64,000 bases of DNA from Alphaproteobacteria bacterium (GTDB lineage Bacteria; Pseudomonadota; Alphaproteobacteria; UBA828), in contig CBDEFM010000002.1 in NCBI GenBank assembly GCA_965237415.1, positions 1,248,001 to 1,312,000 on the forward strand. The letters run 5' to 3'. The translations under genes and the position numbers were made by a program. Shown one piece after another: positions 2,876-33,249 of the stretch (position 1 is the first letter of the stretch; every line of letters starts with the position of its first letter). The notes below the pieces were generated by a model. It saw only the letters and a program-made list of their open reading frames with translations. It was not told the DNA's origin and did not search any database.

Positions 2876-3111
2876 CCCGGACCATGGTGCGCTGCACGGC
2901 GCCCCCGACACGTCATGGCCGGACTCGTTCCGGCCATCCACGTGTTTGCCCAGCGTCCGGCGGGCCTGGCTCTGGGGATGCCCGGAACAAGTCCGGGCAT
3001 GACGGCGTGTGGGAGTGGTCGGTCGGAGAGACCGCGCGCCGGCCCGACAACATGCAAACGAACTTCGGAAACGGGACACGAGCCCGGACCATGGTGCGGT
3101 GCACGGCGCCC
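2874..3111 (+). repeat. 31-bp direct repeat (2874-2904, 3081-3111) flanking a REP-doublet insert
   Basis: AGCCCGGACCATGGTGCG(C/G)TGCACGGCGCCC occurs twice with 1 mismatch, 176 bp apart. Confidence 0.85.
2911..3077. repeat. REP doublet (GTCATGGCCGG...CCGGCCATCCACG type) plus tail, family B copy 1
   Basis: Inverted pair CGTCATGGCCGGACTCGTTCCGGCCATCC / GGATGCCCGGAACAAGTCCGGGCATGACG; tail GGCGTGTGGGA...AACGAACTTCGGAAAC shared with 33468-33539. Confidence 0.85.
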
Positions 3112-3472
3112 GGCGTCCGTGCCAGGATCGCGCGATGCAGCAATCACGCTCCCGCGCGCGTATCCGCGCGACGCAACGCGAGAGCGAGCGGGAATCGGCA
3201 GGCGGAGTGAGAAGGCGCGCGCGACCTCATATTCCGCGCCCACGACCTTTCAGGCGTGGGCGACATCCCGCGGGCACGACCCTATGTGACGCGCGCGTGT
3301 CCTTTCTGGCACGCGCGACGCGGGCGTGCGGGACTCTTGATTCCGCGCCCGCGACCTTTCAGGCGCGGGCGACATCCCACTTATCCCACTTATCCCACTT
3401 ATCCCACTTATCCCACTTATCCCACTTATCCCACTTAATCCCACTTAATCCCGGCGAATCCCGCTTGGAATT
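3081..3472 (+). repeat. Dispersed repeat family A copy 1, with (ATCCCACTT)7+1 tandem tail
   Basis: Homologous to 32920-33249 (+) and 18203-18464 (-); seven perfect 9-mers at 3374-3436, then AATCCCACTTAATCCCGGCGAATCCC. Confidence 0.88.
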
Positions 3473-3552
3473 AAATGTGTATCCGTCCCGCCGCGTTCTT
3501 CGGACCGCTCCCGGCGGAGCGAACGCTCGAGCGCCTCGGCGAGACTCGCGAC

Positions 3553-4170
3553 CTAATCGTGGGAGAAGATGTCCACCTCGGGCCAGCCCTCGAGATCGAG
3601 CCGGGCACGGTCGGGCAGGAAGGCGAAGCAGGCCTGCGCGAGCTCGACCCGCCCTTCGCGGGCCAACATCGCGTCGAGCTTCTCCTTGAGCGCGTGCAGG
3701 TGGAGAACGTCGTTCGCGGCGTACTCGAGCTGGCTTCGGGAGAGCGCGTCCGCGCCCCAGTCAGACGACTGCTGCTGCTTCGATATCTCGACGCCGAGCA
3801 GGTCGCGGCAGAGGTCCTTGAGGCCGTGGCGGTCGGTGAAGGTGCGCGAGAGCCGCGAGGCGATCTTGGTGCAATAGACCGGCCCGCAGCGGACGCTGAG
3901 CGCGTGCTCGAGCACGGCGATGTCGAAGCGGGCGAAGTGGAAGATCTTCAGCACCGTCTCGTCGGTCAGCAGCTTCGCCAGATACGGCGCGTCGATGGGC
4001 TCGCCCGGCGGAAACTGGACCAGATGGCAGTCGCCATCGCCGCGCGAGAGCTGAACCAGGCAGAGCCGGTCGCGATGCGGGTTGAGGCCCATCGTCTCGG
4101 TGTCGATCGCCACCGCATCGCCGAAGGTGAGCCCCGGCGGCAGGTCGCCGCGATGCAAGTGCTGAGCCAT
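3553..4170 (-). CDS. rnd: Ribonuclease D-like 3'-5' exonuclease (short DEDDy form)
   Basis: AIDTETMGL, FHFARFDIA, QQSSDWG, YAANDV motifs. Confidence 0.88.
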   Translation of the reverse strand: MAQHLHRGDLPPGLTFGDAVAIDTETMGLNPHRDRLCLVQLSRGDGDCHLVQFPPGEPIDAPYLAKLLTDETVLKIFHFARFDIAVLEHALSVRCGPVYCTKIASRLSRTFTDRHGLKDLCRDLLGVEISKQQQSSDWGADALSRSQLEYAANDVLHLHALKEKLDAMLAREGRVELAQACFAFLPDRARLDLEGWPEVDIFSHD

Positions 4171-4181
4171 GGCGTGCTGCC

Positions 4182-4252
4182 TAGCCCGGAACTCTCGCCA
4201 GGGTCAACGTCTGCGCGACGCAGGCCGTGACATTGGTGAGAAATCCGGGCTA
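4182..4252. repeat. 71-bp imperfect palindrome TAGCCCGGA...TCCGGGCTA (MITE/ERIC-like), family C
   Basis: Right arm 4219-4252 is identical (34/34) to 60834-60867 and related to 31844-31877. Confidence 0.8.
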
Positions 4253-4296
4253 ATAGTCGTGGCGCGTCAACGGCAAGGGCAGCGAGCGGGGCCCAC

Positions 4297-5298
4297 GTGC
4301 GTATCGTCACAATCTTCGGCGGCAGCGGGTTCCTCGGGCGCCATATCGTCCAGCGCCTCGCGCATGAGGGCTACGGCATCCGCGTCGCGACCCGGCGGCC
4401 GGAACTCGCCGGATTCCTGCGGCCTTGCGGCGATGTCGGCCAGATCGTTCCGGTTCAGGCCAACGTGCGCGACGAGGCGTCGATCCGCCGTGCCGTCGCC
4501 GGGGCAGACGCGGTGATCAATCTCACCGGCATCCTCTACGAGCGCGGCCGGCAGACCTTCTACGCCGTCCACGTGGCATCGGCCGAGCGCATCGCGCGTG
4601 CAGCGGCAGATGCCGGCGCCTCTCATCTGCTGCACGTGTCTGCGATCGGTGCCGATGCGGCCTCGCCCTCGGACTACGCACGCTCCAAGGCGGCCGGCGA
4701 GGCAGCCGTCAGGGAGGCGTTCCCCACTGCCACCGTGTTCAGGCCGAGCCTTGTGTTCGGGCCGGAAGACGAGTTCTTCAATCGCTTCGCGTCCATCGTG
4801 CGCCTGGTTCCGGTTCTGCCGGTGTTCTTCGACGGGCTGCCGAAGATGAAGCTGGATGGGCTTTTCCTCACGCCCGAGTTCGTCGCGGGCACGACGCTAT
4901 TTCAGCCGGTCTTCGTGGGGGACATCGCCGAGGCCACCCAGCGGGCGCTGGCCGGCGAGGCGGCGCAGGGCAAGACCTACGAGCTCGGCGGCCCCTCGGT
5001 CTACAGCTATGCCGAGCTGATGGCGCTGGTCGCACGCGAGACCGGCCGAAAGGCAATTCTGGCCCCGGTACCGTTCTTCGCCGCGGCGGTGATGGCCAAG
5101 TTCCTTCAGTTTGCGCCGGTGCCGCCGCTGACGCCGGACCAGGTGACGCTGCTCCGGATCGACAATGTCGCCTCGGCGGACGCGCCGGGCCTCGCCGATC
5201 TCGGTGTCAGCGCGACGGCGGCGGAGCTCATCCTGCCGACGTACTTGCGGGACCATCGCCGCGGCGGTAGCGAATCGACGCCGGTGGCCGAAGCCTGA
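4297..5298 (+). CDS. Complex I NDUFA9-like NAD-dependent epimerase/dehydratase
   Basis: TIFGGSGFLG, YARSK, RPSLVFGPEDEFFNRFA motifs. Confidence 0.9.
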   Translation: MRIVTIFGGSGFLGRHIVQRLAHEGYGIRVATRRPELAGFLRPCGDVGQIVPVQANVRDEASIRRAVAGADAVINLTGILYERGRQTFYAVHVASAERIARAAADAGASHLLHVSAIGADAASPSDYARSKAAGEAAVREAFPTATVFRPSLVFGPEDEFFNRFASIVRLVPVLPVFFDGLPKMKLDGLFLTPEFVAGTTLFQPVFVGDIAEATQRALAGEAAQGKTYELGGPSVYSYAELMALVARETGRKAILAPVPFFAAAVMAKFLQFAPVPPLTPDQVTLLRIDNVASADAPGLADLGVSATAAELILPTYLRDHRRGGSESTPVAEA

Positions 5299-5323
5299 GA
5301 CCCGCGCGCCGCGCGGGCGCCCA

Positions 5324-6133
5324 TCAAGCCAGGTAATGGAGCCAGACGAGCACCGCCCCGCCCAACAGCAGGCGGTAGATGACGAACGGCGTGAAACTCA
5401 CACGCCGGAGCAGGGCGAGCAGCACCGCTATTGCAACGAGCGCCACGAGGAACGAGAGGGCTGCGGCCAGCGCTGCGTTCGCGGTGACGATGGGGTCCCC
5501 CTGGCTCCAGACCTCGTAGCCGGCCACCGCGCCGCTCGCCCCGATGACCGGGATCGACATGAGCATGGAGAAGCGCGCCGCCTCCGGCCGCTCGTAGCCG
5601 AGCCAGCGGGCGGCGGTCATGGTGACGCCCGAGCGGCTGGCGCCGGGAATGAGGGCGAGCACCTGGAAAAGGCCGATCAAGAACGCGTGGCCGAGCGACA
5701 TGTGCTCGACGCGCCGGACCGTGAGCCCGATGCGATCGGCGCCATAGAGCAGAAACCCGAAACCGATCGTCGCCCAGGCGACCACCGCCGGATCGCGGAG
5801 CACCGTGTGCCCCATCACGTAGAGCACGCCACCGGCAACGATGACCGGAACGGCGGAGACGATCAGGTAGAAGCCGAGGGCCCGGCCCAGGCGCCGGTCA
5901 TGCCGCCGCCAGTGCCCGCCGATCCAGCCGAGGACCATGTGCCAGAGATCGCGCGAGAAATAGACCAGCACCGCCGCCAGCGTGCCGACGTGGACCGCCA
6001 CGTCCATGATCAGCCCCTGGTCCTGCCAGCCGGTGACGAGCGGCACCAGCACGAGATGCCCGGACGAGCTCACCGGCAGAAACTCGGTGATGCCCTGGAT
6101 GATCGTGAGGACGGCGATATGGAGGAACGGCAC
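5324..6133 (-). CDS. uppP: Undecaprenyl-diphosphate phosphatase
   Basis: QGITEFLPVSSSGHL and PGASRSG motifs. Confidence 0.96.
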   Translation of the reverse strand: MPFLHIAVLTIIQGITEFLPVSSSGHLVLVPLVTGWQDQGLIMDVAVHVGTLAAVLVYFSRDLWHMVLGWIGGHWRRHDRRLGRALGFYLIVSAVPVIVAGGVLYVMGHTVLRDPAVVAWATIGFGFLLYGADRIGLTVRRVEHMSLGHAFLIGLFQVLALIPGASRSGVTMTAARWLGYERPEAARFSMLMSIPVIGASGAVAGYEVWSQGDPIVTANAALAAALSFLVALVAIAVLLALLRRVSFTPFVIYRLLLGGAVLVWLHYLA

Positions 6134-6346
6134 GGCCGCGCTGCTCTGTCGAAAGCGGCCGATTCGCCGCCGCCGCGCTTATACCACTACGGGACCGATG
6201 AGGGACAGAATTGGACGCTCGTTTCATAGTCGCAGTTCGGTCCTAATTTGGGTGGCAAGCGTGACTCAGTTCGCTTGCCGCAGATGCCGATACGGCGCCA
6301 CTGGAAACTTTCAGACAGCCATTCTGCCCTATTGGCGCCGAATTGC

Positions 6347-6376
6347 TTGGCGTGACCGACCGCTTGCGGCTATAGT
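6347..6376 (+). promoter_or_regulatory. Possible sigma70 promoter for gltDB
   Basis: TTGGCG-N18-TATAGT about 70 nt upstream of the gltD start; motif match only. Confidence 0.3.
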
Positions 6377-6444
6377 GGGAGCGATCGGAGGTGGAGGGTG
6401 CGCGGCAGCCCCGCCCGTACACCGAGACGCCAGGGAGAGAGCGC

Positions 6445-7893
6445 GTGGGCACAGAAATGCTCAAGTTCGTGACGCTCGGGCAGCAGCATCCGGACAAGCG
6501 CGCGCCGGCGCTCCGCCGCCGCGACTGGGGGGAGGTCTACGGCGACTTCCGCCCCGAGGCTGCAGCCGACCAGGCCGCCCGCTGCTCTCAGTGCGGGGTG
6601 CCCTTCTGTCAGATTCACTGCCCGGTCTCGAACAACATCCCCGACTGGCTGATGCTGACGGCCGAGGGACGGCTGGAAGAAGCCTACGAGATTTCGTCGG
6701 CGACCAACAACATGCCGGAGATTTGCGGCCGCATCTGCCCGCAAGACCGCCTCTGCGAAGGCAACTGCGTGATCGAAAAGGGTTTCGAGTCGGTCACCAT
6801 CGGCGCCGTGGAGCGCTACATCACCGACACGGCGTTCCAGAACGGCTGGGTGAAGCCGCCGCAGCCCAGGGTCGAACGGCCGCAGTCGGTCGGGATCGTC
6901 GGCGCGGGGCCGGGCGGAATGACGGTCGCCGAGGAGCTGCGCCGCCTCGGCTATCAGGTCCACATCTACGACCGCTATGACCGGGTCGGCGGGCTGCTGA
7001 TCTACGGGATTCCGAACTTCAAGCTGGATAAGTCCATCGTTGGGCGCCGGGCCGATCTGCTCGTCGAGGGCGGCGTGCACATGCACCTCAATGTCGAGGT
7101 CGGGCGCGACTGCTCGCTTGCCGAGCTGCACGCACGGCACGATGCGATAGTGATCGCGACCGGCGCCTACAAGGCACGCAACATGTCCGTTCCGGGGATC
7201 GGCCTCGGCAACATCTTCCAGGCGATGGACTACCTCACCGCGAGCAACCGCAAGGGATTGGGCGATGAGGTGCCGGCCTTCGACGACGGCACCCTCGACG
7301 CCGAAGGCAAGAACGTCGTTGTCGTCGGCGGCGGCGACACGGCGATGGACTGCGTGCGCACGGCGGTGCGCCAGGGGGCGCGCTCGGTGCGCTGCCTCTA
7401 CCGCCGCGACCGCGCGAACATGCCGGGCTCGATGCAGGAGGTCAGGCACGCCGAGGAGGAGGGCGTCGAGTTCGTCTGGCTCTCGGCGCCGGAGGCCGTG
7501 CTCGGCAACACCGACGTCGAGGGCGTGCGCGCAGTGCGCATTCATCTCGGCGTCGCCGATGCCAGCGGCCGCCAGATCCCCCAGCCAATTCCGGGCTCGA
7601 GCTATTCCGTCGACGCCGATCTGCTCATCAAGGCGCTCGGCTTCGACCCTGAAGATCTACCGGCGATGTTCGGCGAGCCCGGGCTTGAGACGACGCGTTG
7701 GGGCACGCTGCTCATCGACTGGCGCACCATGATGACGAACCTCGACGGCGTCTTCGCCATCGGCGACATCGTGCGTGGCGCCTCGCTGGTCGTCTGGGCG
7801 ATCAAGGACGGGCGGGACGCCGCACGCTCCATTCACCGCTATATCCAAGTGGGAGCGGATGAAGGCGCCGTCGTGAGGGAGGCCGCGGCATGA
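6445..7893 (+). CDS. gltD: Glutamate synthase small subunit
   Basis: CSQCGVPFCQIHCP, CGRICPQDRLCE, GGGDTAMDC motifs; start GTG 6445 or ATG 6457. Confidence 0.95.
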   Translation: MGTEMLKFVTLGQQHPDKRAPALRRRDWGEVYGDFRPEAAADQAARCSQCGVPFCQIHCPVSNNIPDWLMLTAEGRLEEAYEISSATNNMPEICGRICPQDRLCEGNCVIEKGFESVTIGAVERYITDTAFQNGWVKPPQPRVERPQSVGIVGAGPGGMTVAEELRRLGYQVHIYDRYDRVGGLLIYGIPNFKLDKSIVGRRADLLVEGGVHMHLNVEVGRDCSLAELHARHDAIVIATGAYKARNMSVPGIGLGNIFQAMDYLTASNRKGLGDEVPAFDDGTLDAEGKNVVVVGGGDTAMDCVRTAVRQGARSVRCLYRRDRANMPGSMQEVRHAEEEGVEFVWLSAPEAVLGNTDVEGVRAVRIHLGVADASGRQIPQPIPGSSYSVDADLLIKALGFDPEDLPAMFGEPGLETTRWGTLLIDWRTMMTNLDGVFAIGDIVRGASLVVWAIKDGRDAARSIHRYIQVGADEGAVVREAAA

Positions 7894-10800
7894 GCGATCG
7901 CAAGCACCCTCCCCTCGCCCAACCGATGGTGCTGAGCGGCGGCCTCTATGATCCCAGTTTCGAGCACGATTCGTGCGGAGTCGGACTGATCGCCTCGCTC
8001 GATGGCACACCGCGACGCGATGTGGTCGAGGCCGGCATCGCGGCGCTCAAGGCGGTGTGGCACCGGGGCGCGGTCGATGCCGACGGCAAGACCGGCGACG
8101 GCGCCGGCATTCACGTCGAGATTCCGCAGGACTTCTTCAGGGAGCATGTGGAGGCGACCGGCCAGGGGACCAAGGGCGGGCGGCTGGCCGTCGGCATGGT
8201 GTTTCTGCCCAAGACCGATCTCGGCGCGCAGGACCTCTGCCGCAGCATCGTAGAGACGGAGATTCTCCGCTTCGGCCACGGCATCCAGGGTTGGCGCCAG
8301 GTGCCGATCGATTCGTCGGTGATCGGAGAGAAGGCGAATGCCAGCCGGCCGGAGATCGAGCAGGTCATGGTCGACAACGAGCGCGGCGTCGATGACGATC
8401 AGTTCGAGATCGACCTCTACATCATCCGCCGGCGCATCGAGAAACAGGTCCTCGACCACCACATCACCGGTTTCTACATCTGCTCGCTCTCGTCCCGCTC
8501 GCTCATCTACAAGGGGATGTTCCTGGCCGAGCAGCTCACGGCGTTCTATCCGGACCTGCTGGACGAGCGCTTCGTGTCGCGCTTCGCGATCTTCCACCAG
8601 CGCTATTCGACCAACACCTTCCCCACCTGGCGCCTGGCGCAGCCCTTCCGAATGCTCGCCCACAACGGCGAGATCAACACGGTACGCGGCAACAAGAACT
8701 GGATGGCGAGCCACGAAACGCGGGCCGCCAGCGACGTGTTCGGCGCCCACAACAACGAGCTCTTTCCGCTGATCGAGCCGGACACCTCGGACTCGATGGC
8801 GCTCGACGCCGTGCTCGAGGGCGTGGTGCGGGCCGGCCGTTCCGTGCCGGCGGCCTATAGCCTGCTCATCCCGGACGCCTGGTCCAAGAAGCAGGACATG
8901 CCGGCCAACCACCGTGCGTTCTACAACTTCTGCAACTGCGTGATGGAGCCCTGGGACGGCCCGGCGGCGGTCGCCGCAACCGACGGGGCCTGGATTCTGG
9001 CCGGGATGGACCGCAACGGCCTCCGCCCGATGCGCTATAGCGTCACGGCCGGCGGCATGCTCGTCGTCGGCTCCGAGACCGGCATGGTCCCGATCCCGCC
9101 CGAGCAGATCGTCGAGAACGGCCGGCTCGGCCCCGGTCAGCTCATCTGCGTCGATCTTGCCGAGGGTCGCCTCTATCACGACCGCGAAATCAAGGACATG
9201 CTCGCCGAGGCCAAGCCCTACGCGTCATGGGTCGCCGACGTGGTGGACGGCAGCGCCCTCGTCGGGGGCCGGACGGAGCCCCGCATGTTCTCGCGCGACG
9301 AGCTCCGCCGGCGCCAGCGCATGGTGGGCTATTCCATGGAAGAGCTCGAACTGGTGCTCCATCCCATGGTGGAGGCCGGCAAGGAGCCGACCGGCTCGAT
9401 GGGCGACGACACGCCGCTCGCCGTGCTCTCCGGCCAGTATCGGGGCCTGCACTACTACTTTCGCCAGATGTTCGCGCAGGTGACCAATCCGCCGATCGAT
9501 TCCTTGCGCGAATACAGCGTCATGAGCCTGCTCACGCGGCTCGGCAGCATGGGCAATATCTTCGCCGACGAGCCCGAGCAAACCGCGTTCCTGCAGCTCG
9601 ATTCGCCGATCCTCACCAACGGCGAGTTCGCGGGCCTGATCGAGCATCTGGACGACAAGGCGGTGTGGATCGACTGCACCTTCGACGCCGCCCCCGGCCG
9701 CGAGCGGCTCACCGAGGCGATCGAGCAGATCCGCGGGCAGGCGGAGGAGGCGGTGCGCGGCGGCGCCACCCACCTCATCCTCACCGACGAGCATGTCTCG
9801 GAGGAGCGCGCGCCGATCCCCATGATCCTGGCGGCCGGCGGCGTGCACAGCCACCTGGTGCGCCAGCGGCTCAGGACCTTCACGTCGATCAACGTGCGCG
9901 CCGCCGAGTGCCTGGACGTGCACTATTTCGCCGTCCTCATCGGAGTCGGCACGACCACGATCAACCCCTATGTCGCGCTGGAAAGCCTGGCCGACAGGCA
10001 GGAGCGCGGGCTCTTCGGCAACCGCAGTTTGGCGGACTGCGAGGAGCGCTACCGCAGTGCCGTCGATGCAGGGCTCCTCAAGATCCTCTCGAAGATGGGC
10101 ATCTCGGTGCTGAGCTCATACCGGAGCGGCTACAACTTCGAGGCCGTCGGCCTCAGCCGGGCATTGGTCGCCGATTTCTTCCCCGGCATGACGGCGCGCC
10201 TCTCCGGCATCGGGCTCAGCGGCATCAAGCGCCGCGTGCTTCTCCAGCACCGCAAGGCCTATGAGGAGAGCCCGGTCGTGCTGCCGGTGGGCGGCCTCCT
10301 CAAGTACCGCCGGTCGGGCGAGGTGCACGCCTTCGACGGGCCGCTTATCCACATGCTCCAGTCGGCTCTCGCGACCGATTCCTACGCGACCTACAAGAAG
10401 TTTGCCGAAGGCGTCTACGCGTTGCCGCCGATCCAGATACGCAACCTCCTCGGCTTCAAGACCGAGAGGCCGGCGATCGGGCTCGAGGAAGTGGAATCGA
10501 TCACCCAGATCCGCAAGCGCTTCAGCAGCGGCAGCATGTCGCACGGGGCGCTCTCCAAGGAGGCGCACGAGACCCTCGCCATCGCGATGAACAGGATCGG
10601 CGCGGCGTCCTGCAGCGGCGAGGGCGGCGAGGCGCGCGAGCGCTTCGAGCCGCGCGACAACGGCGACAACGCATCGTCTGCGACCAAGCAAATCGCCTCC
10701 GCCCGCTTTGGCGTGACCGCGGAGTACCTGAACCACTGCCGCGAGATCGAGATCAAGATGGCCCAGGGGGCGAAGCCCGGCGAAGGCGGCCAGCTGCCGG

Positions 10801-12404: not shown

Positions 12405-12487
12405 GCCGGCCGCCGAGGCGCAGGATGAGGAAGCGCGCCACGGGTTTCGGCTGGAAAAGCGAGCGGTAGCGGCGGAACGCGCTTCTC

Positions 12488-18202: not shown

Positions 18203-18464
18203 AATTTCAAGTGGGATTCGGCGGGATTAAGTGGGATAAGTGGGATTCCGCGCGGGAAAAGGTCGTGCGCGCCCGAAGGGGTCGTGCGCACTTGGAACAT
18301 GCTCGTGCGCTCGAAGGGTCGTGTAGGCGGGAAATGGTCTCGCGCGCCCATCCCGATGATGCTACCCCCGCGCGCATCCCGCGCATGTGGCCCGCTCGCT
18401 CTCGCCCTGCATGACGCGATCATGGCGCATAAGCCTCGCTCCCTGCATTGCAACATGGTCCGGG
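18203..18464 (-). repeat. Dispersed repeat family A copy 3 (inverted, diverged)
   Basis: Reverse complement reads CCCGGACCATGTTGCAATGCA...GATCGCGTCATGCAG..GCGAGAGCGAGCGGG...CGGAATCCCACTTATCCCACTTAATCCCGCCGAATCCCACTTGAAATT. Confidence 0.8.
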
Positions 18465-20035: not shown

Positions 20036-20125
20036 TGGCGGAGGGGGTGGGATTCGAACCCACGGTACGCTCACGCGTACAACGGTTTTCGAGACCGCCC
20101 CGTTCGACCACTCCGGCACCCCTCC
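20036..20125 (-). tRNA. tRNA-Ser (anticodon CGA)
   Basis: 90 nt GGAGGGGTGCCGGAGTGG...GCGGT-CT-CGA-AA-ACCGT, long variable arm, GGTTCGAATCCC T-arm, encoded CCA. Confidence 0.97.
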
Positions 20126-23995: not shown

Positions 23996-25246
23996 TTAGC
24001 GCCAAATTCCTCGTGTATCGATTACCAGTTTGTCCGTCAATTTTGCCTGGTCCATATTCCGAAATTCCTGGTGGTCGGTCAGAAGCACCACGATTCGGGC
24101 CGACATCAGTGCCTCATCCAGGGAAGCAAGTATCGTACCATTGTTCCCCGCTAATTCCGTCGGCAGTGCTACGATATGCGGCTCCACAACGAGCAATCGT
24201 CCCGCAATCGATTGCTGTAAGCCGCGTACGACCTCAATTGACGGGCTTTCACGCAAATCTCCGACATCCGCCTTGTAGCTCAGGCCGAGACAAGCAACAT
24301 CGGGCTGCACCATTTCCACAGCCGCCGATAAGACGCGTTCGATCACCTTACGCGGCTTGTCATCATTGACCCGCCTTGCCGTGCCAATTAGCGGCGTAAG
24401 ATCAGGTGCGGAGTGCACCAGAAACCAAGGATCGACAGCGATACAGTGGCCACCGACACCGGGGCCGGGCCGAAGAACATCGACGCGCGGGTGGCGATTG
24501 GTAAGCTCTATGAGTTCCCAGGGATCGACGCCGAGGAACTCGCACACCGAAGAAATTTCGTTGGAGAACGCGATATTGACGTCTCGGTATGCGTTTTCGG
24601 TCAGTTTTGCCAACTCGGCCGTTCGTGCATTCGTTATCGAACACGTGCCCTGCAAGAATACCTCGTAGAGAGCCTTCGCAGCCGCGGCGCATGCGGGCGT
24701 CACTCCTCCTACGACGCGATCGTTTTGCAAGAGTTCCACAATAATCCGGCCTGGCAAAATTCGCTCAGGACTGTAGGCGACACGGATATCGCTGCCTTCT
24801 CCCTTCGAATTGGGAAATGACAGGTCCGGGCGAAGCGCCGAGAGCCATTCGCAGAGTGCTTCCGACGTCCCGACCGGCGAGGTCGATTCGAGCACCACTA
24901 GATTTCCCGACCTTAGCACCGGCGCCAGGCTTCTCGCGGCAGCCTGCAAGTGACTGAGATCGGGAGCATGCCCATCCTTCAGGGGTGTCGGAACGGCAAT
25001 GATAAAGGCGTCGGCGATAGCCAGCTCTTCTTGAGCACGCAACTTCCCGCTTACGACCGCGCCGCGAACCATGACATCGAGATGGGGCTCTACGATGGGG
25101 GCCACGCCGGTGTTTATCGTCGCCACGCGATCAGGATCGGTATCGACGCCAATCACCTCGATATTGTTCGTTGCGAATGCTGCTGCCGTCGGAAGCCCGA
25201 CATAGCCGAGGCCGATCACGCAAAGTCGATTGAACCGCTCAGCCAT
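23996..25246 (-). CDS. wecC: UDP-N-acetyl-D-mannosamine dehydrogenase
   Basis: [38 protein letters not shown] motifs. Confidence 0.92.
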
Positions 25247-25670
25247 CGATCAGGTTCGCCAGAATTCGTTCGCTTGCATGGCCGTCTCCGTAGGGATTGT
25301 GAACCCGCGCCATAGCGGCATAAGCATCCGAGTCATCCAGCAACGCCGTTACCTCTTTGACGATACGGTCAGAATTCGTGCCGACCAGCCTCACCGTACC
25401 GGCTTCCACGGCTTCGGGTCGCTCCGTAACCTCTCTTGTCACGAGCACCGGCTTGCCAAGCGACGGGGCTTCCTCCTGGATTCCGCCGGAATCTGTAACA
25501 ATGATATAGGCTTCGGTCATAAGGTAAACGAATGCCACATAGTCGAGAGGAGGAATTAGATGAATATTGGGATGAGAGCCCAGGGCCTCATGTACTGGGG
25601 TGCTCACGTTAGGATTCGGATGGACCGGATATACAATTTCGACATCGTCACGCGCTGAAATTCGAATCAG
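25239..25670 (-). pseudogene. wecB: UDP-GlcNAc 2-epimerase, 3' fragment (IS256-interrupted)
   Basis: [29 protein letters not shown] motifs; joins the 5' fragment as [12 protein letters not shown]. Confidence 0.92.
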
Positions 25671-27119
25671 GGTCGTGTCCCAGGACGTGGTGTAGGAGTT
25701 GTTGGAGCCTCTGTTAGCTGTGGGTAGGCGGCTTGCTGTAGCGACCGCCGAGAGTCTGGCGTAGGCAAGCCGGCTATCCACAGCGGAGGCCATCGCGGTT
25801 CCGGTTTAGGGTTGGGCTAGAGCGAACCAACCTGACCCGAAGGAGAACCACGATGACCCAGGACATGATGACCCTGCGCGCGCTTTTGGAGAAGAGCTCC
25901 GATGCCGATCTGCTTCGCGAGATGATCGGCTTCACGGCCGAGCGGCTGATGGCACTGGAGGTCGAGGGCCTGACCGGCGCCGGGCACGGCGAGCGCTCGG
26001 CGGATCGTATCACCCATCGCAACGGCTATCGCGAGCGACGCTGGGAAACGCGGGCGGGCACGGTGGAGCTGAAGATCCCGAAGCTGAGGAAGGGGAGCTA
26101 CTTCCCGGGCTTCCTGGAGCCGCGGCGGATGGCCGAGAAGGCGCTGGCTGCGGTGATCCAGGAGGCCTACATCCAGGGCGTATCGACCCGCTCGGTCGAC
26201 GATCTGGTTCAGGCGATGGGGATGTCGGGCGTCTCCAAGAGCCAGGTCTCCAGGCTGTGCGGCGAGATCGACGATAAGGTCAACGGCTTCCTCGATCGAC
26301 CGCTGGAGGGCGACTGGCCCTATCTGTGGCTGGATGCGACTTATTTGAAGGTGCGCGAGGCCGGGCGCATCGTCTCGGTCGCGGTGACTGTGGCTGTGGC
26401 CGTCAACGACCAAGGCCGCCGCGAGGTCCTGGGCGTGGCGATCGGCGCGTCGGAGGCCGAGATCTTTTGGACCGAGTTCCTGCGCTCGCTGGCCCGGCGC
26501 GGGCTGCGCGGCGTGAAGCTGGTGATCTCCGACGACCACAAGGGCCTGAAGGCCGCCGCGACCCGGATCCTCGGCGCCACATGGCAGCGCTGCCGCGTGC
26601 ACTTCGCCCGCAACCTGCTGGCCCATGCCGGCAGGCAGGGCCGGCGCGTCGTCTCCGCCTTCGTCGCCACCGCCTTCGCCCAGGAGGACGCCGACAGCGC
26701 CAAGGCCCAGTGGCGCCAGGTCGCCGACCAACTCAGGCCCAAGGTGCCCAAGCTGGCAGTTCTCATGGACGAAGCCGAGCACGACGTCCTCGCCTACATG
26801 AGCTTCCCCAGGGAGCACCGCCAGAAATTGCATTCGACCAACCCGATCGAACGGCTCCATGCCGAGGTCAAGCGCCGCACCAACGTCGTCGGTATCTTTC
26901 CCAACGAAGCCGCTATCACACGGCTCGTCGGTGCCATCCTTCTCGAGCAGAACGACGAGTGGGCCGTCTCAAGGAGATACATGACGCTGGAATCCATCGC
27001 TCCGCTGCGCGATGGTGTCCCCATCACGCTGCCCACCGTGGCAGCCTGAACGTCCCGGCCCTACCCGCCGGGAGCCGCGTAGAGCGCAACGCTCTTACAC
27101 CACGCGCCGGGACACGATC
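25671..27119 (+). mobile_element. IS256-family insertion sequence (~1.45 kb)
   Basis: Imperfect terminal IRs GGTCGTGTCCCAGGACGTGGTGTAGGAG / GATCGTGTCCCGGCGCGTGGTGTAAGAG; target duplication AATCAG(GG) at 25665 and 27120. Confidence 0.93.
25853..27049 (+). CDS. IS256-family transposase
   Basis: [41 protein letters not shown] (DDE triad); intact 398 aa. Confidence 0.96.
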
Positions 27120-27809
27120 AATCAGGGCTTTGCATACCTCCGCTATACCGGGGCCCAAATTCTCGCGCCGATGCCCGGTAACGAGAATCAACCGCCTGTT
27201 CGCACTGAGGTCAGGTAAGGCCGCACAAGCCTTTTCGGTTAACTTGGGCTCGTTTCCAAGTCTCTCAACCATATATTCTAGAGCATCGACAACGGTATTG
27301 CCTGTAAGCGTGATTCCCTCTTCGGCAATTCCTTCGGCCAGGAGATTCTTGCGTGCTTGTTCCGTCGGCACATAGTGCCGATCGCTAATCAGATCGGTCA
27401 ATCGCCGGTTTATTTCTTCCGGCCAGGGCATCGAGATGTTCCCGCTACGTAGACCGGCTTCAACATGGCCGACCGGTGTCTTGGAATAAAATGCGGCAAG
27501 AGCCGCGGCGAAGGAGGTCGTCGTATCGCCTTGTACCAACACGCGATCCGGCCGCGCTTCGGAAAGGACTGTCGCCATTCCTGTCGTAACGGCGTTCGTA
27601 ATATGCGTAAGGTCTTGGTTGGGTTTCATGACACTCAGATCGAAGTCCGATCGAAGCCCAAACATTTTGAGGCCGGAATCCAGCATCTCACGATGCTGAG
27701 CCGTCACACAGATAAGGTGCTCAACCTCTTCAGACGAAGACAAGGCACGTGCCACCATCGCCATCTTAATCGCTTCGGGACGCGTCCCTATTACGGACAG
27801 GACTCGCAT
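27120..27809 (-). pseudogene. wecB: UDP-GlcNAc 2-epimerase, 5' fragment (IS256-interrupted)
   Basis: GTRPEAIKM, VQGDTTT, HVEAGLRS, TGHRREN motifs. Confidence 0.93.
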
Positions 27810-28045
27810 GTTAATTCGGATGATCGTCGATTGTACAACTCAAATCCATATGCTTTTGGTTTGAGCCTATATGCCTACTAAACATGAAGAGTTAAATAAC
27901 GCGGAAACGGATGTTTAAATCGATTTATTGAAGGCCGTATGTGGAGGCGGAGGGGACCACGCCCTACGCGCCATGGCCGTCCGAGCCAAACCCGATGGAC
28001 GCGCACTGTGATGGGCTGCAGAATCGCCTTAGTCTGCGAGCCATC

Positions 28046-28927
28046 ATGTATCCGGCGCCCATCGAGGCCTATTTCGCACCGAAGACCGTCGAGGAGGCGC
28101 TCAGGTGCCTCGCCGAGGCGGGCGACAGCGCGATGTTCATCGCCGGCGGAATGAGCCTGATGCAGGCCATGAAGGCGCGGCTGCTGGCACCGCGCGCCCT
28201 CATCGACCTGAACGAGGTGGAGGAGCTGAGCGGCCTCGCCAAAGGGCCGCGCGGCGTGACCGTGCGCCCCCTCACCCGTTACCGCGAGCTCACCGCGACC
28301 TCGGCGCTCCACGGTGCCCTGCAGGCGATCGGGGACGCGGCGGCAACGGTGGGCGACCGGCAAGTACGCAATGCCGGCACCATCGGCGGCAGTCTCTGCT
28401 GGAACTACGTCGCGTCTTGCATGCCGAACGTCTGCCTCTGCCTCGATGCGACACTTGTTCTTGCCTCACGAGGCGGTGGCGAGCGAACCCTGCCTATTGA
28501 AGAATTTCTGGTCGGGCCGCTCGAAACCGCACGGCGTGACGACGAGCTCTTGATCGAGATTAACTTTCCGTCCTCAAAGCACTACGGAGTCGGCAGCGCC
28601 TACAAAAAATATAGCGCAACGGTAGACGGATTACCCATCATCGGCATCGCGGCCTCGATCGAAATCGACGAGTCCGGGCTTTGTACAGATGCACGCTTCA
28701 GCGTCGGCGGTATTCTGCCAACCGCCCAACGGTTCGACGGAGTCCGCGCGCTACTTTGCGGCCAACCGGGCAGCCCAGAGACCTCTGCCAAAGCGGCCAG
28801 CGCCGCAGCCGATGCAATCGAGACGCAGACGGACCATCTCGCCAGCGCCCACTATCGCAAGGTGCTGATCCGTACGCTTGGCCGCGACGTGTTGGCCGAG
28901 GCTCATGCCCGCGCGATGGGGAGGTAG
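28046..28927 (+). CDS. Molybdenum hydroxylase FAD-binding medium subunit (CoxM/CutM-like)
   Basis: IAGGMSL and QVRNAGTIGGSL motifs. Confidence 0.88.
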   Translation: MYPAPIEAYFAPKTVEEALRCLAEAGDSAMFIAGGMSLMQAMKARLLAPRALIDLNEVEELSGLAKGPRGVTVRPLTRYRELTATSALHGALQAIGDAAATVGDRQVRNAGTIGGSLCWNYVASCMPNVCLCLDATLVLASRGGGERTLPIEEFLVGPLETARRDDELLIEINFPSSKHYGVGSAYKKYSATVDGLPIIGIAASIEIDESGLCTDARFSVGGILPTAQRFDGVRALLCGQPGSPETSAKAASAAADAIETQTDHLASAHYRKVLIRTLGRDVLAEAHARAMGR

Positions 28928-28931
28928 GCGT

Positions 28932-29447
28932 GTGAACAAGACGATCACCGTCACCGTCAACGGCAAAGCCTACGAGCGGACCGTGCCGATCCGCCTTCTG
29001 CTCGTCGATTTCATCCGCGACGAATGCCGCCTGACCGGCACACACATCGGTTGCAGCTACGAAGGACGTTGCGGGGCGTGCACGGTGATGATCGAGGGAC
29101 GCGCCCACAAGTCCTGCATGAAGCTCGCGGTGCAAGCCGACGGCAAGGACGTGACCACGATCGAGGGGCTCGGCAGCCGGGATAACCTGCACCGATTGCA
29201 ACAGGCCTTCCGCCGCTATCACGCGCTGCAGTGCGGGTTTTGCACGAGCGGGATCCTGATGAACGCAGTCGATTTCCTGAACGAGAACATCAACCCGAAC
29301 GAAGAAGAGGTGCGCCGCGCCCTGGTCGGTAACCTCTGCCGCTGCACCGGCTACACCCATATCGTCGAGGCGATCCTCGCCGCTTCGGCCATGCGTCACG
29401 GGGTGAAGCCGGTGCCGCCGCCGGCGGAAACCGAGAGCGCGCCATGA
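28932..29447 (+). CDS. Molybdenum hydroxylase 2Fe-2S small subunit (CoxS/CutS-like)
   Basis: GCSYEGRCGACTV, QCGFCTSG, GNLCRCTGY motifs. Confidence 0.92.
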   Translation: MNKTITVTVNGKAYERTVPIRLLLVDFIRDECRLTGTHIGCSYEGRCGACTVMIEGRAHKSCMKLAVQADGKDVTTIEGLGSRDNLHRLQQAFRRYHALQCGFCTSGILMNAVDFLNENINPNEEEVRRALVGNLCRCTGYTHIVEAILAASAMRHGVKPVPPPAETESAP

Positions 29448-31846
29448 CCAGGGCCGGCGAGGCACGCTGGATCGGCCGCTCGCTGGAGCGGCGCGAGGAT
29501 CTGCGCCTGCTCACGGGCCAAGGCGAATACCTTGCGGATCTCCGCGTCCCCGATTGCCTCCATCTCTGCTTCGTCCGCTCGAGTCACGCGCACGCCAAGA
29601 TAAGGAGCGTTCGACTGGAGACGGCGCTAGCGATGCCGGGCGTGGTCGGCGCGATCGCCGGCGCCGAACTCTCTAAGGAGATTCAGGGCCAAAAGATTCC
29701 GGTATTGATCCCCGCCTTCGCCGCGACCTATCGCCAGTACTGGCCGCTCGCGGTGGACGAGGTGTATTGGCACGGCGAGCCGCTCGCCGCGATCGTGGCG
29801 CAAGACAAGTATGTCGCCGAGGACGCCGCGGCCGCCGTGGAGGTCGATTACGAGCCGCTCCCCGTCGTCACCGACGCCGAGGCTGCGCTGCGCGACGGCG
29901 CACCGCGGGTCTATGACGACTGGGACAGCAACGAGATTTTTGGCACCAGCTACACCGGCGGCTCCGAAGCGGACGAGATCGCCGCGAACGACGCCGAGGT
30001 CGAGGCCTTGTTCGCCAAGGCCGACGTGGTGCTCGAGCAACGCTTCCGCACCCACCGCTGCGGTGTCTGCCCCATCGAGACCCGGGGCGCGCTCGCGATC
30101 TGGAGCGATGCGGACGGGTTGACCGTGCACCTGACGACGCAACGCCCTCACATCGAGCGTCTCGCCCTTGCCGACCTCCTCGAGCTTTCGACCGCCGAGG
30201 TTCGGGTCGTCGCACCACGCGATCAGGGCGGCGGCTTCGGCGTCAAGGCGCCGTTCTACCGCGAGCATGTCGTGGTCTGTCATCTCGCGCGCAAGCTCGC
30301 CCGACCAGTGCGCTGGATCGAGACACGCGAAGAACACCTGATGACGGTGAGCCAGGAGCGCGACCAGATCCACGATCTCGAAATCGCGGCGGACAAGGAG
30401 GGCCGCATCCTCGCGCTCCGCAATCGCGGCATTGCCGATGTGGGCGATGGGCGCCAGGGGGTCTATTGGGGCTTCGTCATGCCCTCGCTCGGCTCGGTCA
30501 TGCTGCCGAACGCCTACGCGATCGGGCGTGCCGATATCAAGCTGCGCTGCGCGGTCACCAACAAGACCTGCCTGAGCCCGTCGCGCTCGTTCGGTGCGCT
30601 GCCCACACGTTTCGCGCTCGAACGCGGCCTCGACATGCTGGCACGCAAGCTCGGGCTCGAAACGGTGGACCTCAAGCGCAGGAACCTGATCACCGACTTC
30701 CCGTTCACCAGCGTTACGGGTGTCCATCACGACAGCGGCGATTACGTGAAGGCGTGGGACACGCTGCTGGACAAGGTCGATCTCGCCGGCTTTCGCGCGC
30801 TGCAGAAGGAAGCCCGTGCCGAGGGTCACTATCTCGGGATCGGCTTCGCCTGCGGTGCCGAGTTCTCCGGGATTCCCTCGGACGTGCTGGTGCCCCTGGA
30901 GAACCAGCCCGGCTACGGCGTCGTCACCATGCGCATCGACCCGCGCGGCAAGGTGGCGATCCACGAAGGCGATGCGCCGCAGGGCCAAAGCCACGAGACC
31001 ACGATGGCGCAAGTTGCCGCAGACGCATTCGGCATTCATCCGGACGACGTGAGCGTGCGGCACGGCGATACCGCTACGACGCCGCTCAGCTCGGGCACCA
31101 TCGGCGCGCGCGGCGCCTCCTACACCGTTGCCGCCATCGCCGACGCCGCGGCCGCTCTCAAGGCGAAGATGGCGCGCTACATGATCCACGATCACGGGCT
31201 GGAGGGCGCGAGCCCCGACGATTTCAGCTTCAGGGGCGGCGCGGTCATCTACAGGAAGGATGGCAATATCCGCCGCGAGTTCGCCGCGCTCGCGGATCGC
31301 ATCGTGATGGGGTCGATCGACCTGCCGCCCGGCGAGAGTCCCGGTCTTGAGCACACGGCCTATTTCGAAGCGCCCAAGGCCATGATCTGCTTCACCGCGC
31401 AGGCGGCCAAGGTCGAGGTCGATATCGAAACCGGGCAGTTCGCCATCCTCGACTACGCCACCTGCGAAGATGTCGGCACCGTGATCAATCCGATCGTCGT
31501 CGAAGGCCAGGTTCAGGGCGGCGTCGTCCAGGGCATGTCGAACGCACTGTTCGAGGAGTTCCTGTACGACGAGAACGGCCAGCAGTTGACGGCCGATTTC
31601 GAGAATTATCGCCTCGCCTCTGCTGCCGACGTCCCGAACGTGACGGTCAGCCACTCGCCCACGCCCTGCCCGGACCATCCCCTGGGGGTTCGCGCGGTGG
31701 GCGAAGGCAGGCCGGGGCCCGTCCCGGCCGCGCTCGCCAACGCCATTTGCGATGCGCTCTCGCCCTTCGGCGTCGAAATCACGACGCTTCCGCTCAAGCC
31801 CGAGATGATTTTCGCCTTGATCGAAGCTGGCCGCGCTGGGACTTAG
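29444..31846 (+). CDS. Molybdenum hydroxylase large subunit (xanthine dehydrogenase/CoxL family), substrate unknown
   Basis: GGGFGVK, QGQSHET, VEGQVQGG, VGEG motifs; active-site loop PSRSFG. Confidence 0.9.
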   Translation: MTRAGEARWIGRSLERREDLRLLTGQGEYLADLRVPDCLHLCFVRSSHAHAKIRSVRLETALAMPGVVGAIAGAELSKEIQGQKIPVLIPAFAATYRQYWPLAVDEVYWHGEPLAAIVAQDKYVAEDAAAAVEVDYEPLPVVTDAEAALRDGAPRVYDDWDSNEIFGTSYTGGSEADEIAANDAEVEALFAKADVVLEQRFRTHRCGVCPIETRGALAIWSDADGLTVHLTTQRPHIERLALADLLELSTAEVRVVAPRDQGGGFGVKAPFYREHVVVCHLARKLARPVRWIETREEHLMTVSQERDQIHDLEIAADKEGRILALRNRGIADVGDGRQGVYWGFVMPSLGSVMLPNAYAIGRADIKLRCAVTNKTCLSPSRSFGALPTRFALERGLDMLARKLGLETVDLKRRNLITDFPFTSVTGVHHDSGDYVKAWDTLLDKVDLAGFRALQKEARAEGHYLGIGFACGAEFSGIPSDVLVPLENQPGYGVVTMRIDPRGKVAIHEGDAPQGQSHETTMAQVAADAFGIHPDDVSVRHGDTATTPLSSGTIGARGASYTVAAIADAAAALKAKMARYMIHDHGLEGASPDDFSFRGGAVIYRKDGNIRREFAALADRIVMGSIDLPPGESPGLEHTAYFEAPKAMICFTAQAAKVEVDIETGQFAILDYATCEDVGTVINPIVVEGQVQGGVVQGMSNALFEEFLYDENGQQLTADFENYRLASAADVPNVTVSHSPTPCPDHPLGVRAVGEGRPGPVPAALANAICDALSPFGVEITTLPLKPEMIFALIEAGRAGT

Positions 31847-31877
31847 CCCGGATTTCTCACCGGGCTCGCAGCCTGCG
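31844..31877. repeat. Family C half element overlapping a stop codon
   Basis: TAGCCCGGATTTCTCACC...GCCTGCG resembles the reverse complement of 4219-4252; its TAG ends the upstream gene. Confidence 0.75.
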
Positions 31878-32054
31878 TCATCGCCCATCGCGAATTTGGC
31901 GAGACCTTCCAGGCCGTGCTCTCAGGCGCGCTTGCGACCCGCTCCCCGTTGACGCGCAACCGGACAGCATAATACTGACGCCCGGTGCTACGCACCCGGC
32001 CCTCCGCCAGCGGCCGGCAAGCGATGCCGGCAGTGATCACGGGAGCGTTTTCAC

Positions 32055-32879
32055 ATGAACAGACTGAAATGGGTGTGCGCGCGCATTGTGGCCGCGCCGG
32101 CGTTCGACGGCCTGATCATCGCGATGATCCTGATAACCGCGCTCGGCCTCGGTCTGGAAACGAGCCAGGCGTTCCACGCGCACTTCGGCCACGCCATCCA
32201 GTGGGCCTTCCACGCGGCCCTTGCCATCTTCGTGATCGAAGCCGCGATCAAGCTCACCGCCGTCCCGCCCCGCTTCGAGCGCTATTTCAAGGACGGCTGG
32301 AACCTCTTCGACTTCGTCATCCTGGTCCTCGCCTTCGTGCCGGATGCAGGCGAGCTCGCCCTCGTCGCGCGGCTCGCGCGCCTGCTCCGGGTGCTCCGGG
32401 TGGCGACCGTGGTGCCGCAGCTCCGTGTCATCGTCTCGACCCTGATCCGCTCCCTGCCGGGGCTGGGCCACGTGATGCTGCTGCTCTCGGCGGTCTTCTA
32501 TGTCTACGCGATCACGGGCGTGCACCTCTTCCGCGACCACGACCCGACCCACTGGCGCAACCTCGGCATCGCGCTGCTCTCGCTCTTCCGCGTGATGACG
32601 CTGGACAACTGGACGGACATCATGTACGTCGCGATGGAGCTCCATTCGATGACTTGGTTGTTCTTCGTCAGCTTCGTGATGCTGGCGGCAGTCATCATGA
32701 TCAACCTCGTGATCGCGGTGGTGATCAACAACCTGCACGACGCGCGCCTCGAGGTGGCGCCGGTGAGGGGCGACGAAAGCGAAGACGAAGCGACACTCAG
32801 AGCCGTGCGCGAGGAGGCGGCGAACGCCCGCGCCGCCCTGGAGCGTGTCGAGACTATTCTCGCCAAGATGAAGAAATAG
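32055..32879 (+). CDS. Bacterial voltage-gated cation channel (BacNav/Ion_trans family)
   Basis: 6TM pattern, WNLFDF, S4 RLARLLRVLR, pore TLDNWTD, S6 INLVIAVVIN, coiled-coil tail. Confidence 0.9.
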   Translation: MNRLKWVCARIVAAPAFDGLIIAMILITALGLGLETSQAFHAHFGHAIQWAFHAALAIFVIEAAIKLTAVPPRFERYFKDGWNLFDFVILVLAFVPDAGELALVARLARLLRVLRVATVVPQLRVIVSTLIRSLPGLGHVMLLLSAVFYVYAITGVHLFRDHDPTHWRNLGIALLSLFRVMTLDNWTDIMYVAMELHSMTWLFFVSFVMLAAVIMINLVIAVVINNLHDARLEVAPVRGDESEDEATLRAVREEAANARAALERVETILAKMKK

Positions 32880-32919
32880 GCCGTCCCCTTCCCCCTTCCA
32901 GCGGTGCGCCGAAGTGCGC

Positions 32920-33249
32920 TAGCCTGGACCATGGTGCGGTGCAAGGCGCAGGGCGTCCGCGCCAGGATCGTGCCGTGCAGCAATCATGCTCCCGCGCGCG
33001 TATCCGCGCGACCTGCTCCCGCGCGCGTATCCGCGCGACCTGCTCCCGCGCGCGTATCCGCGCGACGCAGTGCGAAAGCGAGCGGGGTGCGCGGGCGGGC
33101 GTGACCCCAAATGCCGCGCGCGCGACCCTCCGAGCGCAGGCGACCTCAAATGCCGCGCGCACGACCCTCCGGGCGTGCGCGACTTGTCCCACGGAATCCC
33201 ACTTATCCCACTTAATCCCACTTAATCCCGGCGAATCCCGCATGAAATT
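32920..33249 (+). repeat. Dispersed repeat family A copy 2, with internal 27-bp x3 tandem
   Basis: Starts TAGCCTGGACCATGGTGCGGTGCA; TGCTCCCGCGCGCGTATCCGCGCGAC(C) x3 at 32987-33066; (ATCCCACTT)2+1 at 33196-33223. Confidence 0.88.

Follow-up and report, generated by a model that had tools for sequence, protein, structure and literature searches.

An intergenic repeat family with Mu Mor/C-type promoter architecture and small-terminase ancestry in an uncultured alphaproteobacterial genus

The stretch of DNA analysed here (the window, C2:1248001-1312000, 64,000 nucleotides) belongs to a genome of 4.75 Mb and 66.7% G+C in two contigs (G000), and its intergenic spacers carry three copies of a repeated element composed of a head, a variable middle and a repeat tail. 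The three copies lie exactly where the preliminary description of the window had placed them, two on the forward and one on the reverse strand (Table 1). They share a head of the form CCCGGACCATGGTGCGGTGCA...GATCG...ATGCAG and a tail of ATCCCACTT units that ends in AATCCCG(G/C)CGAATCCC; the three-part layout and the unit numbers reported earlier (7+1, 2 and 2+1) were found again in all of them. In copy 3, the start codon in the head is mutated to GTG, and a 27-bp triplication lies within the decayed open reading frame (ORF). The absence of a credible ORF, noted previously, holds for these three copies only, since longer copies elsewhere in the genome contain an intact ORF that begins at the head ATG and resembles a phage small terminase (TerS).

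Copies of the element were gathered by two rounds of nhmmer over the whole genome, which returned 77 heads and 75 tails; the family is thus not confined to the few copies of the window. Head and tail could be joined into 67 pairs of 145-1272 bp, all 67 with both parts on the same strand. The tail contained 4-6 phased TCCC cores in 60 of the 67 pairs (maximum 13), and the number of ATCCCACTT units ranged from 0 to 8 per copy, in agreement with the variable tail copy number described before. About 57 copies are shorter than 600 bp and ten pairs are long (0.7-1.27 kb). The abundance of the element is far beyond chance: a 25-nt tail pattern, with at most one mismatch, occurs 57 times in the studied genome, while the reversed pattern used as a control had no match in any of 44 genomes searched. 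The copies showed no replication-strand bias (36 of 62 co-oriented). As had been stated, there is no terminal inverted repeat, no inverted pair linking the head end of the element with its tail end. An Rfam search of the whole window at gathering scores matched no part of the element; its sole match was a tRNA gene at 20039-20125 (-), 1.6 kb from copy 2. Within the reach of the Rfam and literature searches, the family therefore stands as undescribed.

The head proved to have a fixed geometry. It consists of a dyad, (C)GSACCATGGTGCG, followed by 14-16 variable nucleotides, a hexamer NANNNT and an ATG. Of 76 heads, 60 have their ATG at position 53 and 62 have NANNNT at -12 to -7 from the A of this ATG, most often as CAGGAT (26 heads at that offset). 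If the A at position 53 is taken as +1, the ACCATGGT dyad at head positions 6-13 is centred at -43.5. A simple scan of the copy-1 region (window 2800-3600) found no sigma-70 -35/-10 pair. The C and Mor activators of phage Mu are described as binding 16-bp dyads centred at -43.5, in promoters that have a -10 element and no -35 element (PMC2582627, PMC4390567). The architecture of the head is that of a Mu promoter of the Mor/C class. A gene for a Mor/C-like activator of 115 amino acids lies at C2:1212934-1213281, 35 kb before the window, where it adjoins genes for an S24-type repressor and a Gam-like protein. Its product matches PHROG 836 (E 1.2e-13) and the Pfam Mor family (26.5 bits against a cut-off of 24.9); a search of the genome with the PF08765 profile missed it and hmmscan found it.

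Similar heads also stand before phage genes elsewhere on C2 (Table 1), namely before a lysis cassette, a large terminase (TerL), a Mu-type portal, a protease with a major capsid protein, and a set of connector and tail genes. Upstream of the portal gene, only two blocks, the dyad and GATGATCGGGSCATG, are conserved in all nine genomes compared, and these include genomes that lack the tail pattern. A conserved 17-codon ORF (C2:1229588-1229643) separates this head from the portal; it starts at the presumed leaderless +1 ATG and its TGATG overlaps the portal start, an arrangement that looks like translational coupling from a leaderless mini-ORF to the portal gene. In public RNA libraries, contigs from two libraries of one study touch the head and the middle of the element, a signal that DNA carry-over could also produce and that speaks neither for nor against transcription. 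In four public runs, available as contigs only, the summed depth on the tail bin was about 100-fold above that of the flanks because of the copy number of the repeat.

The long copies revealed the origin of what lies between head and tail. They fall into four copies of about 700 bp, five of about 1.24 kb and one of 968 bp with a foreign insertion sequence (IS) fragment; an eleventh copy (C2:1799755-1805666) has both an IS110-family transposase gene and an IS21-family istA/istB pair inserted in its TerS cassette, which they split. The four 700-bp copies are 86-94% identical to one another, and their similarity ends at the head on one side and 10-50 bp past the tail on the other. In both the 700-bp and the 1.24-kb class, a single ORF begins at the head ATG. 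Its product matched PF11985 (Phage_Mu_Gp27) with E 1.6e-23 and 84.4 bits for the 700-bp class and E 1.3e-6 and 29.4 bits for the 1.24-kb class (cut-off 28), and the cassette ORF matched PHROG 426, 'terminase small subunit', with E 1.5e-27. By blastn, window copy 1 aligned with both ends of the 1.24-kb class (~120 bp at the 5' end, ~200 bp at the 3' end), and its first codons (MQQSRSRARIRATQRESER) are those of the long-copy ORF. Because copy 1 thus matches both ends and the first codons of a long copy, the short copies are internal-deletion derivatives of a small-terminase cassette.

Public assemblies contain at least 922 homologues (E <= 1e-5), and metagenomes contain more than 120 protein clusters (at 90% identity) with 79-93% identity to the query. 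Fourteen aligned homologues agree throughout the recognition-helix region, CSRSAVGRY, apart from one residue in two of them. A tblastn search of a phage record collection gave only two distant DUF3486 matches, and in the viral contigs of IMG/VR the tail pattern had no match and the head pattern a single one, a chance match in low-GC coding DNA. The dispersed TerS copies are flanked by unrelated host DNA and not by a large terminase gene; the only TerS-like gene seen close to TerL is a 50%-identical paralogue in the related genome G003, ~330 bp from TerL.

The tail is an array of (A/G)TCCC(A/G)C cores, one every 9-10 bp, situated at or just past the 3' end of the TerS gene. An array accompanied TerS in every gene-bearing copy inspected, in the studied genome, in G003 (after the stop codon), in G017 and in a further metagenome-assembled genome (MAG). 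The ORF of the 700-bp class continues into the array, and some metagenomic homologues stop at the TAA of ACTTAA inside it while others read on into the flank. Since the ORF ends in or after the array, the homologues vary in length (213-360 amino acids) and show an indel of 3 residues, the equivalent of one 9-bp unit. The array follows the stop codon in the 1.24-kb class, by ~300 bp, and in a 58%-identical copy of G003; the 1.24-kb class can therefore dispense with it as coding sequence. Between species the 4-nt spacers vary but the AATCCC/TCCC core persists at its period of 9-10 bp, and one MAG has an array of about 45 cores. Variant arrays with GTGCC or GAGCC cores and the same 9-10 bp phasing were found in G002, in the spacer orthologous to window 32880-33545 (L059), and in the studied genome at C2:2949486 and C2:780631; they may be specificity variants. 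The array thus presents phased short repeats in or beside terS, as pac sites do, and our preferred reading is that it is a TerS recognition (pac-like) site. With it we take up, as a prediction from the repeat pattern, one of the suggestions of the preliminary description, namely protein-binding sites arrayed at a spacing of 9-10 bp.

We also considered RNA structure, since a structured noncoding RNA had been proposed as another possibility. The middle of the element contains hairpin modules: an HMM search found 81, of which 49 lie inside elements (48 on the element strand) and 19 no more than 150 bp away from one. The motif fits 69 modules; their outer arms pair at 6.16 of 7 positions, compared with 5.04 after shuffling of the partners (maximum 5.39 in 1000 shuffles), a kind of test that relatedness inflates. 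The covarying positions comprise GC/CG, GC/AT and CCT-AGG versus CCC-GGG. The proposal of a structured RNA receives little support beyond this covariation of the middle hairpins: the element had no Rfam match, its fold as a whole has a z-score of -1.6, and its tail does not pair in the centroid structure.

Tails change their length in place. The 8 ATCCCACTT units of copy 1 compare with 3 in its orthologue in a relative with 97%-identical flanks; among nine strict orthologous pairs, the number of units differed in four and the length differed by more than 15 bp in four. This bears on the earlier suggestion that the element is a retro-copied element like a short interspersed nuclear element (SINE), with a tail made by repeated templated synthesis at insertion. 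Its asymmetric architecture without inverted ends and its varying number of 3' tail units are what such an element would show. However, about 52 nt of the unit lie before the probable start of transcription, among them the activator site and the -10, and these would be missing from an RNA copy; its ancestor is a DNA-packaging gene cassette that encodes a TerS-like protein and no reverse transcriptase; the array is part of, or lies beside, a gene in the full-length copies; and the differing tails of orthologous copies point to slippage in place. Nor was a reverse transcriptase found in or beside the long copies (the whole genome was not scanned for them). We therefore give this explanation almost no credence.

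Table 1. Parts of the element in the window and related heads before phage genes. Plain numbers are window positions; C2 numbers are contig positions.
Feature	Position	Strand	Evidence and remarks
Truncated head, first 27 nt	2876..2902	+	nhmmer head match at C2:1250876-1250902, score 22.8, model positions 1-27; cut by an unrelated inverted-repeat element
Copy 1, whole	3081-3472	+	head, variable middle, tail with 7+1 ATCCCACTT units
Copy 1 head, read as Mor/C-type promoter	3083..3140	+	geometry like Mu late promoters (PMC2582627)
Copy 1 head parts	dyad ACCATGGT 3088-3095; -10-like CAGGAT 3123-3128; ATG 3135-3137	+	nhmmer, geometry; the ATG is the likely +1 and start codon
Copy 1 middle	3135..3373	+	first ~20 codons of a decayed TerS-like ORF (MQQSRSRARIRATQRESER...); blastn to the 1.24-kb copies
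Copy 1 hairpin modules, two	about 3236-3264 and 3345-3373	+	hairpin covariation
Copy 1 tail	3374..3472	+	10 phased TCCC cores (8 ATCCCACTT units), ending AATCCCGGCGAATCCCGC, then TTGGAATTAA
Copy 2	18203..18464	-	head 18407-18464, hairpins, tail 18205-18251 with 2 ATCCCACTT units
Copy 3	32920..33249	+	head 32923-32980, two hairpins, tail 33200-33247 with 2+1 ATCCCACTT units
Copy 3 right-hand extension (TTGCCGAGGTGGGACGCGGAACCGGATCGCGAC)	33258..33292	+	a single inverted core, GTGGGAC, with a small GC hairpin
Head before lysis cassette	C2:1209578	-	DUF5675, holin-like protein, DUF2730
Head before large terminase (TerL)	C2:1226465-1227862 (gene)		PF17289 E 6.8e-20; head weaker and divergent, found by permissive scan only
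Head before Mu-type portal			PF06074 E 7e-87; reached via a 17-codon upstream ORF ending in an overlapping TGATG
Head before protease and major capsid	C2:24623		PHROG 976 E 3.7e-46 (protease), PHROG 1005 E 9.3e-70 (capsid)
Duplicate head before connector and tail genes	C2:1133185	-	includes a 1370-amino-acid tape measure

Some further observations concern the surroundings of the copies. An inverted TCCCGC core lies near the head of copy 1, since AGCGGGAATCGGCAGG (16 nt, window 3187-3202) is 81% complementary to the last array units at 3450-3465. An inverted core (GTGGGAC) also lies behind about a third of the tails, and an extension similar to that of copy 3 follows about 25 of the 75 tails when counted by eye. 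Two other repeat families share the neighbourhood. One is a separate family resembling miniature inverted-repeat transposable elements (MITEs), which starts TAGCCCGGAATTCTCACCA... and has the matching inverted end TGGTGAGAAATCCGGGCTA; it is present at about 4183 and 31845 of the window and at ~28-114 sites genome-wide, often in the same intergenic spacers as the element studied here. The other is an inverted repeat with CATGCCCGGACTCGTTCCGGGCATG-like arms at 2905-3010 and 33370-33400; it interrupts the truncated head at the start of Table 1 and has a very high summed depth in metagenome runs.

The genes that the heads precede belong to a scattered Mu-like set, located at C2:1208141-1213281, 1226413-1230969, 24623-27323 and 1120979-1133185, that is, 17-40 kb and more outside the window. 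Its members are the repressor, the Gam-like protein, the Mor-like activator, the lysis genes, TerL, the portal, the protease, the capsid and the tail genes with the tape measure; a gene for an RTX calcium-binding-repeat protein of 450 amino acids (C2:1228074-1229426; HemolysinCabind E 9e-43) lies between TerL and the portal. Among 21 genomes of the genus, we found the portal in 19, the activator in 16, the capsid in 17 (best match per relative 92-98% amino acid identity in 16 relatives), TerL in 17 and TerS-like genes in 18, with 1-17 matches each. No match for activator, TerS, capsid or TerL was obtained in G012, G015 and G016; these may be one clade, so their joint absence would not be independent evidence. 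The capsid was found in none of 28 genomes from other genera of the order. In G003 the gene order is nearer to that of Mu: a head, lysis genes, the 50%-identical TerS and TerL at one place and, separately, a head, the protease, the capsid and tail genes. Searches of the studied genome with Pfam families (PF03237, PF03354, PF10124, PF05065, PF04984, PF04865 and PF04233) had no match, and no sheath, baseplate J, Mu F, gpT-type or HK97-type capsid was detected; the MuA core (PF02914) was not found either, in a search in which the control genomes were silent too. Structural genes that are vertically conserved in a lineage and scattered over several loci are characteristic of gene transfer agents, and this set, apparently complete-looking in its gene content, may be a gene-transfer-agent-like system of a new kind.

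Unrelated Mu-like prophages also circulate in the genus, and with them a role in phage-host conflict comes into view. The ~77 activator sites and ~70 TerS arrays could act as decoys that titrate the activator and terminase of an infecting or resident Mu-like phage and so delay or abort its late phase, and the many copies of both kinds of site, bound as they would be by late regulators and packaging proteins, suit such a function. The cognate activator and particle genes are, however, conserved chromosomal genes, and the other Mu-like prophages, examined in three relatives (G006, G002 and G013), have no such heads, no such arrays and no related TerS. No defence gene is linked to the copies, although no dedicated scan for defence systems was made. 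We consider a decoy function very improbable.

The tail pattern occurs in 10 of the 21 genus genomes, with 1-66 matches each, and in none of 23 genomes from the family's other genera; an exact-pattern scan found 56 loci in MAG records of uncultured Alphaproteobacteria. A close relative has all three window insertions as well. At the site of copy 3, the same two convergent genes are separated by 650 bp here and by 14-34 bp in ten relatives, and G002 carries at this site a copy with a variant array. Of the empty sites that were to be looked for, the short copy-3 spacer was thus recovered; the relatives are too diverged to give exact junctions. At several loci of a close relative, the two flanks map to distant places in the studied genome, so copies lie at rearrangement breakpoints. 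Neither target consensus nor target duplication could be read from the left and right flanks, the empty sites being too diverged and the spacers shared with other repeats. An upstream motif (TAGCCCGGAATT...) that we tried as a target site belongs to the separate MITE-like family with its own inverted ends, and a 24-kb island beside a copy in the close relative, tried as a prophage, contains metabolic and IS genes.

On another reading, the cassette is a new type of mobile element, purely selfish and with no role in particle production, which some recombinase would move by acting on head and tail; the TerS-like helix-turn-helix protein may bind its ends, and the short copies would be its MITE-like non-autonomous forms. 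The discrete boundaries and unrelated flanks agree with this explanation, as do the copy number that differs widely among species of the genus, the internal deletions that retain both ends, a relaxed constraint on the ORF, the positions at synteny breakpoints and in spacers that are short in relatives, and the many closely similar metagenomic protein clusters mentioned above. On the other hand, no copy contains a transposase, integrase or reverse transcriptase of its own, the IS110 and IS21 genes being insertions into one copy. The parent copies encode only the TerS-like protein, unlike the transposase-encoding parent expected of a MITE. The missing terminal inverted repeats also speak against it, as does the lack of a readable target duplication or target consensus in the flanks. 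Furthermore, the head is the promoter of conserved particle genes too, even in genomes without the tail pattern, and TerS-like genes co-occur with activator, capsid and TerL across the genus, the latter a weak argument since kin are not independent. We judge a purely selfish origin to be quite unlikely.

Taking the promoter, the gene and the array together, we lean with modest confidence towards the view that the element is a phage-derived late transcription unit, consisting of promoter, TerS gene and array, that was multiplied in the chromosome and serves packaging from the arrays. Its ancestry and promoter architecture are read directly from the sequence. The mechanism that we envisage is as follows. 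Once the Mor/C-like activator is produced, a dimer of it would bind the dyad at -43.5. RNA polymerase would begin a leaderless mRNA at the A of the ATG, and all ~77 heads would fire along with the particle genes. The TerS-like protein made from intact cassettes would use its N-terminal helix-turn-helix to bind the phased AATCCC arrays on one face of the DNA, both beside its own gene and at gene-less copies. It would pass the DNA to the conserved TerL and portal, and the chromosome would be packaged from many dispersed starts, as in a gene transfer agent or in lateral transduction from about 70 sites. The length of the tail would meanwhile drift through replication slippage.

Several observations weigh against this proposal. 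Activation, TerS binding and packaging are steps that we infer, and the probable start of transcription, the A of the ATG, is deduced from geometry alone. The ratio of nonsynonymous to synonymous substitutions among the four 700-bp copies is 0.35-0.82, indicating relaxed constraint; their ORF has no stop inside the cassette, and in the 1.24-kb class the helix-turn-helix region is disrupted. An AlphaFold model of the TerS-like protein is confident only for the helices of residues ~20-80 and low elsewhere (mean pLDDT 61.8), and Foldseek found no match for it in the PDB at E <= 0.001. No array could be recognised at the native TerS paralogue that G003 has between its lysis genes and TerL. Finally, the tail has the look of a Rho-loading site with a pause site behind it: it is 40% C and 11% G (C/G 3.57, compared with 33.5/33.3% in the genome), it is unpaired in the centroid structure and lies on the sense strand throughout, and there is frequently a small GC hairpin 3' of it. 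Hairpins with a headless array also close the 12.4-kb tail operon, a position that fits a 3'-end signal as well as a pac site.

The last of these points belong equally to an alternative in which tail and hairpins are an RNA 3'-end module: the (AUCCCACUU)n tract would load Rho and end the transcripts started at the head, and the short copies would be promoter-plus-terminator shells without a packaging role. Such a function is compatible with the promoter and ancestry parts of our proposal. Rho utilization (rut) sites are described as having more C than G, regularly spaced C and unstructured RNA, followed by a pause site (PMC6407284), and to the C-rich, unpaired tail, its downstream hairpin and its place at the end of the tail operon can be added the constant orientation of tail to head in the 67 pairs and the absence of an intrinsic terminator from the copy-1 region (window 2800-3600). 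Against Rho, a rut site needs a composition and not a sequence, whereas here a specific (A)ATCCC core is kept across species and the spacers vary. Typical tails measure 45-60 nt with a spacing of 9-10 nt, whereas 70-80 nt are usually needed, with a spacing of 11-13 nt (PMC6407284). In addition, the ORF of the 700-bp class crosses the array, which ribosomes would thus cover, and the array of about 45 cores is far longer than a terminator requires. We regard termination by Rho as unlikely, though it is the strongest competing explanation of the tail, and retain the pac-like site as the preferred reading of the tail.

A bolder form of the same proposal is that the genus has a hitherto unknown Mu-derived gene transfer agent in which packaging is not random and has its origins in dozens of dispersed promoter-TerS-pac modules. 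Under the Mor/C-type activator that also controls the particle genes, each of them would start headful packaging of the neighbouring chromosome. We put this forward as a tentative and rather doubtful possibility. If it were true, the repeats would be genome-wide origins of transduction that also spread by preferential packaging. If the arrays are terminase entry points, the chromosome is seeded with packaging-start modules tied to a domesticated particle system; to our knowledge, there is no earlier case of a chromosome with many dedicated packaging-start modules tied to domesticated phage particles. Work on lateral transduction, on gene transfer agents and on families of intergenic repeats would then be linked, and there would be a sequence handle on the old question of how domesticated particles choose the DNA that they package. 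The literature searches, which covered mostly abstracts, turned up neither dispersed terS cassettes nor a gene transfer agent derived from Mu. On a more modest reading, a repeat family of ~70 copies is explained as decayed phage late transcription units, its about 77 sites define a large activator regulon, and a conserved, scattered set of Mu-like particle genes is revealed in an uncultured alphaproteobacterial genus.

Parts of this arrangement resemble known systems. The late promoters of phage Mu (Plys, PI, PP and Pmom) and the middle promoter Pm have, like the heads, a dyad at -43.5, a -10 and no -35 (PMC2582627, PMC4390567). They too drive lysis, head and tail operons, and here a gene of the Mor/C family lies next to a repressor and a Gam-like gene. 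The heads differ in their dyad, with its ACCATGGT core, in their probably leaderless start and in their number, ~77 copies per genome, most of which stand before no phage gene; they are known from sequence alone. P22, SPP1, P1 and T4 provide examples of pac sites in or beside small-terminase genes. The site at the terS gene and the short repeated motifs of P22 and its relatives are paralleled in our element. Headful packaging begins from the cognate pac site (PMC11260489). In contrast to such sites, the terS-plus-array unit lies away from terL, has its own late promoter and occurs in many copies with gene-less derivatives, and its binding and cleavage are predicted.

The Rhodobacter capsulatus gene transfer agent (RcGTA) is not of Mu-like ancestry, and its packaging is largely sequence-independent. 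It shares with the gene set described here phage-derived head, tail, packaging and lysis genes at several loci, conservation in the lineage and an apparently common regulator (PMC5026251). The present set, known from its genes, differs in its Mu-like ancestry and in the many stand-alone TerS genes with specific-looking arrays. In lateral transduction, and in phage-inducible chromosomal islands and Staphylococcus aureus pathogenicity islands (PICI/SaPI) with their own TerS, a chromosomal pac site launches the packaging of neighbouring DNA in place, as we propose here (PMC8575950, PMC12829572). Those systems, however, use one prophage or island per genome, whereas here ~70 dispersed units of 0.15-1.3 kb lack integrase and replication genes. 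Finally, like MITEs, REP/BIME and RIME, the element is a short, intergenic, high-copy modular repeat with hairpins and deletion derivatives and is associated with rearrangements. Unlike them, it has no terminal inverted repeats and no transposase-bearing parent; one of its ends is a working-looking promoter common to phage genes, and its parent gene is that of a small terminase.

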